Assembly: GCA_963828165.1 (NCBI GenBank)
Contig: CAWHDR010000001.1
Span: 2,304,001-2,368,000 of the forward strand
Length of the DNA: 64,000 nucleotides
Direction: 5' to 3'
From: an uncultured Chloroflexia bacterium
Lineage (GTDB): Bacteria; Chloroflexota; Limnocylindria; Limnocylindrales; CSP1-4
In this document: piece by piece, positions 21,941 to 28,131 of the stretch
Layout: every line of letters begins with the position of its first letter
Numbering within the stretch: the stretch's first letter is position 1
The notes under the pieces: model-generated
Seen by the model: the letters and a program-made list of their open reading frames with translations, nothing else
Database searches by the model: none
Told to the model about the DNA's origin: nothing
Position numbers and translations under genes: made by a program

Positions 21941-22032
21941 GGAGAGGTCGCATAGAGGTCTAGTGCAGCGGTTTGCTAAACCGCCATGTGGGGCAACCTG
22001 CATCGAGGGTTCGAATCCCTCCCTCTCCGCCA
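21941..22032 (+). tRNA. tRNA-Ser(GCT)
   Basis: GGAGAGG/CCTCTCC acceptor, GCGGT-TTGCTAA-ACCGC anticodon arm, long variable arm, CCA. Confidence 0.95.
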
Positions 22033-22055: not shown

Positions 22056-22131
22056 GCGCCCGTAGCTCAGTGGATAGAGCGTTAGGTTGCGGACCTAAAG
22101 GTCGTGAGTTCGAGTCTCGCCGGGCGCGCCA
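22056..22131 (+). tRNA. tRNA-Arg(GCG)
   Basis: GCGCCCG/CGGGCGC acceptor, TTAGG-TTGCGGA-CCTAA arm (anticodon GCG at 22089-22091), CCA. Confidence 0.95.
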
Positions 22132-24796: not shown

Positions 24797-25975
24797 TCAG
24801 TCCAGGCCCACCAGCAGCATCGGGTCGCCGAGCTTGCCCTCGTAGCGCGGCCGGAAGCGCTTCGCGTTATACATGACCGGGACATCGACCTTGCGCGGGC
24901 CGAGGGCCGGATTTGGCAGGTCCGTGTGCGCGTATTTCCCATCCTGGATCGCGACCATGCGGCCGGTGACACCGTCCATGATCAGGTCCATGGCCACGTT
25001 CGCGAAGGTCGTCGCGACCATCGAATCGATGGAGTCCGGCTCGCCCGACCGCAGGTCGTAGGTCAGCTCGGAGGCGAGCGTCTCGATCCCGGTCCGGACG
25101 TGCAGCTCGTAGGCCAGCGCCTCGCCGACATTGGCCTTGTGGCGGTGCCCGAAGGCGTCGGCCTCGCCGACATCGGACACTTGGGCACCCTTCCAGATCG
25201 CACCTTCGGCCGTGATGACGAAGGTGTAGTGCGACGGGTTCGCGGCATGGTCGGCCGCGAGGAGGGCCGCCAGGGCCTCGAGGTCGTAGGGCGCCTCCGG
25301 GATCACGCATCGCGCCGACGTGACGTACGCCGTGTAGAGCGCCGAGAAGCCGGCATCGCGCCCGAAGATCCGGAAGACACCGATCCGTTCGTGTGAGCCG
25401 AGCGTGGTCCGCTGCCGGTTGATCGCTTCCTTCGCGCGCGTGATCGCGGTCGAGAAGCCGATGCAGTACTCGGTTCCCTGGACGTCGTTGTCCATCGTCT
25501 TGGGGATGGCAACCAATGAGACGCCCGCATCAGCGAGGACCTGCGAGTACGACAGGGTATCGTCCCCGCCGATCGTCACCAGGACATCCACGTCGAGGGC
25601 GGCAAGGTGGTCCAGGACGAGCGGCGTGAGGTCGTGGAGGTCGTCGCCCACCGCAAACTTCGCCCGATCGGCCTCCGGCAGCCAGGGCGGCAGGGCTCCA
25701 GCACGCATCTTGCGGGGGTTCGTTCGCGAGGTATGAAGGATGGTCCCGCCGGTCCGGTCGATCGTCCGGGTGTTGATCCGGTCGAGCGGACGCAGGTAGC
25801 CGCCGCCCTCGGGCAGCTCGGGCTGGACGTGGGTCAGGCCTTCCCAGCCGCGCCGGATGCCGAGCACCTCGTGGCCGGCCTCGGTCGCTCGATACACGAC
25901 GCTCTTGATGACCGCGTTGAGGCCGGGAACGTCGCCACCGCCCGTCAGGATGGCGATCCGCTTCGTCGTCGACAT
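24797..25975 (-). CDS. pfkA: 6-phosphofructokinase family protein, PPi-type signature
   Basis: TGGGDVPGLN, GGTILHTSR, GGDDT, PKTMDND motifs. Confidence 0.85.
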   Translation of the reverse strand: MSTTKRIAILTGGGDVPGLNAVIKSVVYRATEAGHEVLGIRRGWEGLTHVQPELPEGGGYLRPLDRINTRTIDRTGGTILHTSRTNPRKMRAGALPPWLPEADRAKFAVGDDLHDLTPLVLDHLAALDVDVLVTIGGDDTLSYSQVLADAGVSLVAIPKTMDNDVQGTEYCIGFSTAITRAKEAINRQRTTLGSHERIGVFRIFGRDAGFSALYTAYVTSARCVIPEAPYDLEALAALLAADHAANPSHYTFVITAEGAIWKGAQVSDVGEADAFGHRHKANVGEALAYELHVRTGIETLASELTYDLRSGEPDSIDSMVATTFANVAMDLIMDGVTGRMVAIQDGKYAHTDLPNPALGPRKVDVPVMYNAKRFRPRYEGKLGDPMLLVGLD

Positions 25976-26067
25976 GCGCACGCCATGCTATCGCGTCGAC
26001 TCGGCCACGACCGTTGCGGTTGGGTGGCGCCAACGGAGCGCGCGCGACCGTCTGCTAGCATCGTCCC

Positions 26068-26508
26068 ATGAACTACGAGCTCTTCATGGGCGAGGCACTG
26101 GCGGAGGCGGAGCTCGCCATCGAGCGCGGTGAGCGGCCGATCGCCGCCGTCGCCGTCGTCGATGAGGCCATGGTGGCCAGGGCTCACGACCGAGTCGAAT
26201 CGACGAACGACCCGACCGCCCACGCGGTCGTCGTCGCCCTGCGCGAAGCCGCCCGCCGCCTGGGCCGTGGCCGCCTTGCGGACGCCACGATCTTCACGAC
26301 CCATGAGCCGTGCGCGATGTGTGTCGGGGCCCTCCTGGCCAGTGACGTCGAGGCGCTCGTCTTCGCATTCGAGGACACCAGAGAGGGCGCAGCGGGCACG
26401 GTCCTGCAGCTGGCGCAGCACCCGGGTCTGCCGCGACGAATCAAGGTCGTGAGCGGGATCCGGCGCGACGAAGCCGAAGCGCTGCTCGCCGGAGCGCCGA
26501 CCGCCTGA
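26068..26508 (+). CDS. tadA: TadA-like nucleoside deaminase with degenerate active site (HAV instead of HAE)
   Basis: FMGEALAEA..A...GERP, DPTAHA, EPCAMC; position upstream of SRP RNA-dnaX as in Bacillota. Confidence 0.8.
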   Translation: MNYELFMGEALAEAELAIERGERPIAAVAVVDEAMVARAHDRVESTNDPTAHAVVVALREAARRLGRGRLADATIFTTHEPCAMCVGALLASDVEALVFAFEDTREGAAGTVLQLAQHPGLPRRIKVVSGIRRDEAEALLAGAPTA

Positions 26509-26695
26509 CCGGGGGTCGCCTGCTGGTCACGTCCAGTGACCCCTATCCCGATGAACACGCGGGCGTGCCGATCAGATCCAGCGGTTTTGCGGGTCACCCC
26601 AGCGTGTTCATCGCGACCGTGTCACTGAGCGAGGCATGCGCGGTCCGAGGCGCCTGTCACCGGACAAGGACTCGCGCTTTGGTATCCTCTCCCGC

Positions 26696-26781
<86 letters not shown>

Positions 26782-26983
26782 CAACCGCCCGCCGGTCGCG
26801 ATGGCGGCCGATGCGTGCGTTGTCGCCTCCGGTCCTCGCTCACGCACCTTGGGTGCGCTCGCTCCGGTGCTCGGACGGCGCCATCGCCTCGACGCCCATG
26901 GCGGCGGGCTGACGTCATGGGCCGGACGGTCCGCCGGGGAACGCGGTGCGCGCCGGGTGGCATCCCGTTACCCTGCCCCCTCG

Positions 26984-27071
26984 GGAGAGGTCGCCTAGTG
27001 GACTATGGCGCCGCACTGGAAATGCGGTTTGGGGCAACCCATCGCGGGTTCGAATCCCGCCCTCTCCGCCA
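26984..27071 (+). tRNA. tRNA-Ser(GGA)
   Basis: CCGCA-CTGGAAA-TGCGG anticodon arm, long variable arm, CCA. Confidence 0.95.
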
Positions 27072-27116
27072 CACCCGGCCGCCGGCTGACATTCCGCGCA
27101 CGAGTAGGTCACGCTC

Positions 27117-27803
27117 ATGACCCAGACCCTCCTGCCGAGCATCACGCCGTTGCTCCTGTCGGAGTTCCGGTTTCCGGATCCGGCGCTGGCCGACCGGGTC
27201 GGCGTCGTCGTCGGCTATGTCGTCCGCCACGAGCGCGGGATCCTGCTGTTCGATACCGGGTTCGGGTTCGGAAACGCGGAGCTGGAGGCTACGTACCATC
27301 CGGTCGCCCGACCGATCGGCGAGGTCCTGGCGAGCGTTGGCATCGAGATGGGCGAGATCACCGAAATCGTGAATTGCCACCTTCACGCGGATCACGCCGG
27401 ACAGAACGCCGCGTTTCCAGGGACGCCGATCTTCGTCCAGCCCGTCGAATGGGAGCTGGCGCACACGCCGGATCACACCATCCTCGAGTGGGTCGACTTT
27501 GCCGGAGCTCGATATCGACAGATCGCGGGGGACCACCAGGTCGCACCCGGCGTCCGTGTCGTCGCGACCCCGGGCCACACGCCAGGTCACCAATCCCTGG
27601 TCGTCGACGGACCCGACGGCTCCATCGTCCTCGCCGGCCAGGCCTGCTACACCGTCGGCGAATGGACGGGTGATCCGGATGCCCTCGAAGGGCGGAGCGG
27701 CGCCCCCGACAAGGCCGCGTACGATCGCTCGATCGAGCGCCTGCGCGCGCTGGATCCGGCCCAGGTCCTCCTCGGCCACGACCGCGAGCGATGGACGGCA
27801 TGA
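27117..27803 (+). CDS. Metallo-beta-lactamase fold hydrolase (N-acyl homoserine lactonase-like)
   Basis: LFDTG, HLHADHAG, TPGHTPGH, GHD motifs. Confidence 0.88.
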   Translation: MTQTLLPSITPLLLSEFRFPDPALADRVGVVVGYVVRHERGILLFDTGFGFGNAELEATYHPVARPIGEVLASVGIEMGEITEIVNCHLHADHAGQNAAFPGTPIFVQPVEWELAHTPDHTILEWVDFAGARYRQIAGDHQVAPGVRVVATPGHTPGHQSLVVDGPDGSIVLAGQACYTVGEWTGDPDALEGRSGAPDKAAYDRSIERLRALDPAQVLLGHDRERWTA

Positions 27804-27830: not shown

Positions 27831-28097
27831 GCCGTGCTAGGCGGGGAACTAGCGGTGCCCTGTAGCCTGCAATCCGCTCCAGCAGGGCCGAATCCCCTCT
27901 CGAGGTCTCCGTTCTCGGACGCCGCCCGACGGTGCGACGTTGAGGACCGGGTCCCGCGCAGCGGCGAACCGCGAACCGTGTCAGGTCCGGAAGGAAGCAG
28001 CACTAAGCGATCCTCGTCGGGTGCCGCGGAACGGCCTGGTCCGAGCCGCCCGTCATGGTGGGCCCGAGCGACGGTCGATCGACGGAGGGTGCACGGC
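27831..28097 (+). ncRNA. ffs: Large bacterial SRP RNA (with Alu domain)
   Basis: 5' GCCGTGCTAGGCGGGGAA..AGCGGTGCCCTGT..CTGCAATCCGCT Alu-like part; helix 8 GTCAGGTCCGGAAGGAAGCAGC; closing GCACGGC; TATCCT -10 at 27819. Confidence 0.93.
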
Positions 28098-28131
28098 AAT
28101 TGATCCCGCTTGCCCCCGACCGGAGGAGGTC

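Follow-up and report, generated by a model that had tools for sequence, protein, structure and literature searches.

A tadA ortholog without the catalytic glutamate, probably a retained pseudoenzyme, accompanies a tRNA-Arg switch in Candidatus Limnocylindria

A TadA-family gene that reads HAV

The DNA analyzed here (the window) is a 64,000-nucleotide stretch, C1:2304001-2368000, of the genome assembly GCA_963828165.1 of an uncultured member of the Limnocylindrales (C1 is contig CAWHDR010000001.1). The assembly comprises 3.31 Mb in 6 contigs, has 69.6% GC, and is 87.7% complete. The window contains an open reading frame (ORF) of the family of TadA, the deaminase of adenine 34 in tRNA-Arg(ACG), in which the catalytic HAE motif (His-Ala-Glu) reads HAV. 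We refer to the gene as pseudo-tadA. On its 3' side follow tRNA-Ser(CGA), tRNA-Ser(GGA), a metallo-beta-lactamase (MBL)-fold gene, the signal recognition particle (SRP) RNA, dnaX, ybaB, recR, and an rRNA operon (Table 1), an order that we take to be that of tadA-scr-dnaX-yaaK-recR in Bacillus subtilis. A preliminary description of the window had reported an intact ORF with its zinc ligands (His plus PCxxC), the HAV motif, Asp in place of the Asn of GxN, and a tRNA-Arg with G34 about 4 kb upstream. Each of these was found as described: H52, C82, and C85 are present, the GxN position is Asp41, and the tRNA is tRNA-Arg(GCG).

Table 1. Coordinates of features in the window (related loci are defined in the text)
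Feature	Position	Strand	Remark
tRNA-Ser(GCT), conserved neighbor of tRNA-Arg(GCG)	21941..22032	+	
tRNA-Arg(GCG), loop UUGCGGA, CCA encoded	22056..22131	+	~4 kb upstream of pseudo-tadA
Phosphofructokinase (pfk), divergent from pseudo-tadA	24797..25981	-	In flanks of 59/80 related loci (60 counting the window)
Extended -10-like TGcTAGCAT	26053..26061	+	Ends 6 nt before ATG
Pseudo-TadA ORF, 146 aa (stop included)	26068..26508	+	ORF list, profile matches; intact
Asp41 (GAC) where TadA has the adenine-N3-binding Asn (S. aureus N42 / E. coli N46)	26188..26190	+	Alignment
His52-Ala53-Val54 (CAC GCG GTC) where TadA has HAE	26221..26229	+	Val54 GTC at 26227-26229
Pro81-Cys82-Ala-Met-Cys85, kept zinc-binding PCxxC	26308..26322	+	EPCxMC in 80/80 related loci
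Short Ala/Pro/Thr tail LLAGAPTA replacing the (D/E)FFxxxR end of the C-terminal RNA-binding helix	26482..26505	+	Alignment
tRNA-Ser(CGA)	26696..26781	+	~190 nt downstream of the ORF, conserved synteny
tRNA-Ser(GGA)	26984..27071	+	
Bacterial large SRP RNA (ffs/scr)	27832..28096	+	173.2 bits, gathering score 60
dnaX ORF as listed	27940..29955	+	TTG start at 27940
ybaB/yaaK	30030..30335	+	
recR	30343..30960	+	

The ORF matches Pfam families PF14437 (90.7 bits) and PF00383 (77 bits), both over the cut-off. Its best NCBIfam match is TadA, NF008113, with 119.9 bits, under the 150-bit equivalog cut-off. Only 5/151 genomes of the class pass that cut-off, namely, four of family f3 and the mixed-signal genome G088 (families are numbered f1 to f5, f1 being the window's own). 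The GC content by codon position, 0.78/0.50/0.85, fits a genuine coding frame. An AlphaFold2 (AF2) model of the product has a predicted local distance difference test score (pLDDT) of 96.4, and its top Foldseek matches are TadA structures (template modeling score [TM] of 0.94, root mean square deviation [rmsd] of 0.7-1.0 A, 36-40% identity). Eleven longer forms of the protein were considered as domain fusions and rejected, each being a one-member cluster on one contig and none recurrent. Three of the 11 bear the Pfam domain of the adjacent dehydrogenase gene, and the longer forms are probably gene-calling artifacts.

Residues are numbered by alignment, query residue n corresponding to E. coli TadA n+5 and S. 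aureus TadA n+1. For comparison, the best 80 of 563 relatives from a scan of one genome per species, queried with a 5-sequence alignment, were taken as related loci; with the window, they make up 81 sequences. The zinc ligands His52, Cys82, and Cys85 are retained in 80/80 related loci, and the position of the catalytic Glu59 (E. coli numbering) is Val54. The protein ends where E. coli TadA goes on with DFFRMR; its last helix stops at residue 142 and is followed by the tail AGAPTA. Between 92 HAE and 35 HAV cluster representatives, columns conserved in the HAE set were replaced in the HAV set as V23R, G26A, N41D, E54V, L75I, Y76F, V77T, A86V, A92S, R93D, G100A, D103N/D, S111T, N122P, and H123R. 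Positions V25, E44, and K105 became variable, A57 is T or V in 11/35 representatives, and L121 falls in a poorly aligned column. Position 41 is N in 91/92 HAE representatives and D in 24/35 HAV representatives (S, E, N, or R in the others). Across the 81 sequences it is Asp in 70 and Asn in 6, with Glu or His also seen, and sampled f4 loci carry D, R, or Q.

Many of these positions have known roles. Passages of PMC8216470 assign the contact with adenine N3 to TadA residue N42, stacking on the base to I26 and H53, and recognition of the 32-38 pair to K106 and N123; for stem-loop binding, the C-terminal helix is needed. R70 and R94 are described in part of PMC3711424 as touching the backbone at G37 and G36. 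The query equivalents of N42, I26, K106, N123, and R94 are D41, I25, R105, P122, and D93. By this alignment, the substrate-recognizing residues are those that changed, with the zinc site, DPTAH, and EPCxMCxGA left invariant. Furthermore, the new residues D41, V54, F76, V86, D93, and A100 are themselves conserved, which looks like re-specification rather than erosion. The net charge has become more negative as well: it is -7 in the query, with medians of -5 in the 80 loci and -6 in f4, compared to -1 in TadA of the sister families.

The invariant zinc-site, DPTAH, and EPCxMCxGA segments form the interface in a homodimer model. This model scored an ipSAE of 0.85 against 0.00 for the best control, a value that may reflect likeness, since TadA dimers have been solved; the ipSAE mark was reached by 20/30 proteins solved as pairs and 1/23 solved as single chains. 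Separate runs agreed in 100% of contacts, with a partner pLDDT of >=92.

The state of the pocket bears on whether the protein is still an enzyme, acting on another substrate through a different general acid/base (for example, Asp41, which lies beside the zinc-bound water) or very slowly editing A to I at rare sites in mRNA or tRNA. The zinc triad and the pocket-lining DPTAH, EPCxMC, and GAAG segments are invariant, new residues near the pocket are conserved (Asp41 in 70/81, plus Arg23 and Arg122/123), and the constraint is as strong as on real TadA. Asp41, however, is not universal in the clade, so no conserved replacement carboxylate is evident. Passages of PMC8216470 present the Glu as an essential proton shuttle and its exchange for Val as one basis of the inactivity of ADAT3, and no A34 tRNA to edit was found in the genome. 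We regard continued catalysis as improbable.

Fixation and purifying selection among relatives

The exchange is fixed among relatives. Residue 54 is Val in 77 and Ile in 3 of the 80 related loci, nearly all of which are labeled Limnocylindrales, Limnocylindria, or Chloroflexota; none has Glu, and none has an internal stop. Codon 54 in the 81 sequences is GTC in 46, GTG in 27, GTT in 4, GTA in 1, and ATC in 3. The Val codons turn over synonymously, and thus the residue is held while the codon drifts. Within the genus, an ortholog was found in 21/24 other genomes (75-96% identity), every one with DPTAHAV, and the closest database homologs are HAV in 120/120 cases. The best 150 cluster representatives at 50% identity comprise 45 HAV and 91 HAE sequences and 14 that are unalignable at the motif or different. 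Above ~50% identity to the query, nearly all representatives alignable at the motif are HAV (P0218 is HAP), and the HAE representatives, all at or below ~53%, keep the Asn except P0164 (Asp). The clade spans at least two families, with protein identity down to ~55%.

Selection was assessed as median ratios of nonsynonymous to synonymous substitution (dN/dS) by the pairwise method of Nei and Gojobori (NG86), in which pairs are not independent. The median for pseudo-tadA in the 81 sequences was 0.216; at these loci, the medians for ybaB, recR, and pfk were 0.244, 0.145, and 0.296, respectively. Nine HAV orthologs from f4 gave 0.246 versus 0.293 for nine HAE TadA genes from f3/f5, a like-for-like contrast that is clear even though the values are approximate. 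The question raised earlier, whether HAV is fixed and under purifying selection, is answered in the affirmative by these data, in which none of the 80 relatives has Glu and dN/dS is not near 1. Judged by these comparisons, the loss of the Glu is neither a sequencing error nor the sign of a decaying gene.

The same data bear on whether the gene is a relic on its way out, looking conserved owing to short time, or a stretch of DNA that serves otherwise, as promoter or leader of the downstream tRNA-Ser genes. Family f2 has lost the gene completely, the copy in genome G007 is split into two frames, and the tRNA-Ser genes lie at a conserved distance. All 80 loci are nevertheless intact across at least two families, at ~55% identity and a dS of ~0.8. 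The dN/dS of 0.22 equals that of neighboring housekeeping genes, Val54 is kept through synonymous change, and constraint on DNA gives no dN/dS signal at the protein level. We find the relic explanation hardly credible.

Several individual sequences deserve mention. In G007, a member of the genus (L022/L025, C3), pseudo-tadA falls into two reading frames, owing to either a frameshift or an error of assembly, and the genome also has an extra cytidine deaminase (CDA)-fold gene with an HGE motif and 40% identity (L030). Among f1 genomes without a TadA match, the contig of G118 ends inside pfk, so that the gene position lies off the contig. Outside the Limnocylindria clade, three TadA-like representatives are Glu-less: P0168 (HAV with an intact DFLAARR tail), P0217 (HPI), and P0255 (HAA with EPTPMC, from a single 703-bp contig). 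These may be independent losses or sequencing artifacts. When metagenomes were scanned with P0255, the matches were just 4 loci, each an ordinary HAE TadA and none near a tRNA, and a protein search with it returned 11 proteins, of which P0271 and P0272 are HAV, the latter lying inside the Limnocylindria clade. Neither search linked the outlying Glu-less sequences to an organism or a tRNA set.

Arginine tRNAs and CGN decoding

ARAGORN called Arg tRNAs with anticodons GCG, UCG, CCG, UCU, and CCU in the assembly and made no tRNA-Arg(ACG) call in this 87.7%-complete sequence; two more Arg calls are over-long (95-97 nt) and look spurious. Arg codons in 1,232 long ORFs with high GC at third positions are CGC (44.7%), CGG (31.5%), CGA (10.5%), CGU (9.1%), AGG (3.4%), and AGA (0.8%). 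By standard wobble, tRNAs with G34, U34, and C34 together read all four CGN codons without inosine.

In the flanks of the 80 related loci, tRNA-Arg(GCG) occurs in 49 and ACG in 0, and the GCG tRNA is identical or near-identical among relatives. Of 14 loci of sister genomes (L167-L180), 13 have a tRNA-Arg(ACG) confirmed by ARAGORN, with the loop in its canonical form, CUACGAA, and 11, mostly those with ACG, have a tRNA-Arg(UCG) ~1 kb away. Compared to the ACG tRNA of the sister families, the GCG tRNA has the loop UUGCGGA (U32, G37), another anticodon stem, and an encoded CCA. The differences at 32, at 37, and in the anticodon stem indicate that it is no simple A34G point mutant. The ACG-to-GCG decoding switch proposed earlier stands as the presence of GCG with no ACG found, and not as a single substitution at the wobble position. 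Co-occurrence of HAV with Arg(GCG), a check suggested earlier, was likewise seen, both in the tRNA calls of the assembly, which lack Arg(ACG), and in the patterns across the class. As a separate observation, the window's genome encodes the 3' CCA in its tRNA-Arg genes (GCG, UCG, CCG, UCU, CCU), and f3 does not do so in its ACG and UCG genes.

Distribution in the class

The survey covered 151 genomes of the class, with the window's own genome left out of the family tallies (Table 2). The tallies include seven genomes flagged as unpublished (G102, G122, G126, G131, G139, G145, and G156), on which no conclusion rests.

Table 2. TadA-family matches and tRNA-Arg patterns (tRNA-Arg D-arm combined with T-ACG or T-GCG) by family
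Family	TadA-family match	ACG pattern	GCG pattern
f1 (own family)	39/44	0/44	39/44
f2	0/6	0/6	6/6
f3	46/49	40/49	13/49
f4	49/50	0/50	47/50
f5	1/1	1/1	1/1

HAV and Arg(GCG) are not features of the whole class but occur together in two families, f1 and f4; f3 keeps HAE with ACG, the single f5 genome keeps HAE, and f2 has Arg(GCG) and no TadA. The pattern search found no ACG tRNA in any f1 or f4 genome. The GCG-pattern matches in f3 (all but two) and the one in f5 are probably due to chance, differing from the f1/f4 tRNA sequence. Twenty loci were sampled. Nine from f3, one from f5, and one contig of G088 have HAE, the Asn, and a (D/E)FFxxxR tail (EAFQRLR in f5), and 9/9 f4 loci have HAV and short Ala/Thr-rich tails, with tRNA-Arg(GCG) in the flanks of 7/9. 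In a quick maximum-likelihood tree, the Glu-less f1 and f4 sequences are monophyletic (31/69 rows; SH-aLRT of 99; stem of 0.72 changes per site), and this clade is nested among bacterial TadA sequences.

The f2 genomes are ~1.1 Mb, fall in the order that also includes f1, and have the same tRNA-Arg(GCG). No TadA-like gene was found in them; only a cdd-type cytidine deaminase is present, elsewhere. In L053, L054, and L060, the interval from tRNA-Arg(GCG) to tRNA-Ser(CGA) is ~1.3 kb and holds a 3-hydroxyisobutyrate-dehydrogenase-like gene and a small ORF, with pfk and pseudo-tadA both missing.

Two genomes stand apart. G088 (f4) carries an HAE TadA, whose 184.5 bits are the highest score in the class, together with an HAV pseudo-TadA, the two lying on separate short contigs, C60 and C56 (L157, L158). 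Both copies adjoin tRNA-Ser(CGA), and the genome shows neither an ACG nor a GCG tRNA-Arg pattern. Either the bin is mixed or the genome is a true intermediate. In G052, the only f5 genome, the ACG-pattern match lies in a tRNA-Arg(ACG)-like sequence at L169:1485-1545 with acceptor, D, and anticodon arms and no T arm. ARAGORN does not call it a tRNA, which makes f5 no more than a candidate for Arg(ACG).

The simplest account of this distribution is a history in three steps. tRNA-Arg(UCG) would already have been there before the switch, with CCG also present. In the ancestor of at least two Limnocylindria families, ACG would then have been replaced by GCG and TadA inactivated on the same branch. 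The dead gene would have been lost later in the streamlined family f2. TadA-losing lineages offer precedents. A model in part of PMC3711424 has Mollicutes losing TadA and replacing ACG by GCG, the gain of UCG preceding the ACG-to-GCG change. Thermotogae and Spirochaetes are listed among such lineages in passages of PMC8007984 and PMC6063277, the latter describing inosine-system loss as repeated events across bacteria. The decoding outcome is the same here, GCG for ACG alongside UCG, and f3 already has UCG beside ACG. In contrast, these lineages, as far as the cited passages go, lost the gene, whereas f1 and f4 keep it intact, constrained, and Glu-less; within Limnocylindria, only f2 took the route of full loss.

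Comparison with TadA and ADAT3

The protein resembles bacterial TadA (NF008113; 1Z3A, 2B3J, 7CPH) in fold, zinc ligands, predicted homodimer interface, and place beside tRNA-Ser, the SRP RNA, dnaX, ybaB, and recR. It differs from E. coli TadA in the exchanges of Glu59 for Val, Asn46 for Asp, and Arg98 for Asp, in LPR for LNH, and in the missing FFxxxR helix end. Unlike bacterial TadA in general, it scores under the equivalog cut-off and has a charge of -7 versus about -1, and the substrate tRNA-Arg(ACG) was not found in its assembly.

The preliminary description had pointed to the HxV change of the eukaryotic pseudoenzyme ADAT3/Tad3, and the likeness goes further than it claimed. ADAT3, according to parts of PMC8216470, combines the Glu-to-Val exchange with a C-terminal helix that is cut short, the loss of tRNA determinants, and a negatively charged surface above the pocket. 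Pseudo-TadA shares the Glu-to-Val exchange with the zinc triad kept, the shorter helix, the loss of recognition determinants, and the acidity. ADAT3 also has an N-terminal ferredoxin-like tRNA-binding domain, whereas pseudo-TadA is a deaminase domain alone, of 146 aa. In ADAT3, Asp348 caps the zinc; the pseudo-TadA tails have no conserved acidic residue. Given its independent origin inside bacterial TadA and sister families with normal TadA, as the sequences place it, the likeness to Tad3 is convergent.

The parallel raises a further alternative, that the protein is the noncatalytic half of a hetero-oligomer, presenting substrate to, or stabilizing, an enzyme encoded elsewhere. The set of ADAT3-like changes (Glu to Val, shortened helix, lost tRNA determinants, acidic surface) and the conserved interface residues agree with this. 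ADAT3, however, works only with catalytic ADAT2, and no ADAT2-like partner was found in the assembly. The TadA profile and the PF00383 profile each matched pseudo-tadA alone, so that neither a second HAE-type TadA, for which a search had been proposed, nor any other second CDA-fold gene was found, although a partner of a different fold is conceivable. The assembly, which is 87.7% complete, also gave no match to a RibD-type deaminase domain or a cdd-type cytidine deaminase. Extra CDA-fold genes occur in some relatives only and are not orthologous to each other, there is no recurrent fusion, and the N-terminal domain of ADAT3 is missing. With a single CDA-fold gene in the assembly, even one that is only 87.7% complete, a partner subunit in the ADAT2/3 sense, one of the roles first suggested, is unlikely, and we give the hetero-oligomer explanation as a whole little credence.

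Interpretation

We consider it likely that the gene is a positional tadA ortholog that turned into a pseudoenzyme and was retained under selection after the tRNA switch. This draws on the loss of catalytic and recognition residues, the co-distribution with the tRNA switch, the intactness and constraint of the gene, and its loss in f2. On that branch, TadA would have lost the proton-shuttle Glu (now Val), the N3-binding Asn (Asp in most), Arg93 (now Asp), the conserved Lys105, the LNH motif, and the FFxxxR end of the C-terminal helix. The zinc site (His/Cys/Cys), the overall fold, and the dimer-interface residues would have been retained, and purifying selection on the protein would since then have been as strong as that on real TadA. 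The protein would not deaminate A34 or anything else and would work as a zinc-bound homodimer whose remodeled pocket binds a ligand or a partner.

Several points weigh against this view. Inactivity is deduced from the known role of the Glu in other CDA-fold enzymes. The four sequencing runs aligned to the stretch, each covering a share of <=0.15 of it, gave no transcript evidence for the ORF. The NG86 values can only be approximate, given a dS of ~0.8 and a genomic GC content of 70%. The co-distribution of HAV and GCG amounts to essentially one event plus one later loss rather than many independent ones, and so, perfect as it is, it is no statistical proof of linkage. Family f2 is without the gene altogether, and hence at least one lineage can do without whatever the protein does. 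The part missing from the 87.7%-complete assembly could contain a second deaminase or an ACG tRNA, and a few relatives have extra distant CDA-fold genes (29-40% identity).

If the gene is such a pseudoenzyme, its product has probably taken on another task. It may bind an RNA or a nucleotide as a noncatalytic ligand; a protein-protein or other structural role is equally possible, and a role of another kind, including residual chemistry, we hold to be only slightly less so. The evidence speaks against editing, against a catalytic partner of the same fold, and mildly against canonical anticodon-loop binding, and it is compatible with a re-specified binding pocket or a structural role. The canonical anticodon-loop contacts have changed and the protein is acidic, and the repurposing for RNA binding that had been suggested is no more than possible.

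A more specific proposal is that the TadA fold has a second, editing-independent role that becomes visible once editing is unneeded. The zinc pocket would then be a reader, not an enzyme, and the protein would be a stand-alone, convergent counterpart of ADAT3. The exchange of Asn for Asp would swap hydrogen-bond donation to adenine N3 for acceptance from the guanine 2-amino group, and the ligand would be G34 of tRNA-Arg(GCG) or some other RNA or nucleotide that bears guanine, with the protein acting as its chaperone, protector, or regulator. The scattered sequences P0168, P0217, and P0255 would then make Glu-less TadA a recurrent outcome of inosine loss. We offer this proposal as a speculation that is unlikely to hold.

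On the preferred reading, of a pseudoenzyme retained after the switch, the gene has outlived its job in uncultured soil and freshwater bacteria with an arginine tRNA that no longer needs A-to-I editing. In the passages cited here, bacterial inosine loss has so far been described as the loss of tadA together with the replacement of ACG. No description of a Glu-less bacterial TadA was found in open-access papers and preprints (supplements not covered), nor did we find a natural stand-alone bacterial pseudo-deaminase described in print. The convergent parallel with ADAT3 may reveal which changes inactivate a TadA-type pocket, and the clade gives concrete access to the question of whether TadA does more than edit A34. 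There is a practical side as well. Databases name these proteins "tRNA(adenine34) deaminase" in some sources and "nucleoside deaminase" at NCBI, and such names would wrongly predict inosine in these organisms.

Promoter, transcription, and other features

The gene had been credited with its own extended -10, leaderless promoter. The element TGcTAGCAT is present, and a -10-like TAnnnT lies 5-9 nt before the start codon in 77/80 related loci, in 28 of these with TGn in front. At this distance from the start there is no room for a ribosome-binding site, which fits a leaderless mRNA. In contrast, a two-hexamer consensus scan of positions 25800-27200 called 0 promoters, and no terminator either. 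The mRNA is probably leaderless, on the strength of the conserved element rather than of the consensus scan.

The four sequencing runs each cover a small share of the stretch and are uninformative on transcription of the ORF. Coverage in the three true RNA runs is confined to the tRNA-Ser genes, apart from a short piece under pfk in X3. Only one run, probably of DNA, covers the ORF itself, from a relative ~91% alike.

Farther downstream, the listed start of dnaX overlaps the SRP RNA on the same strand, so the real start is probably after 28096. Outside the window, ARAGORN called a tRNA-Ile(UAU) at C1:910674-910751, a tRNA-SeC(UCA) at C1:1715771-1715869, and a 98-nt tRNA-like sequence with a four-base anticodon (gccg) at C1:1547823-1547920.

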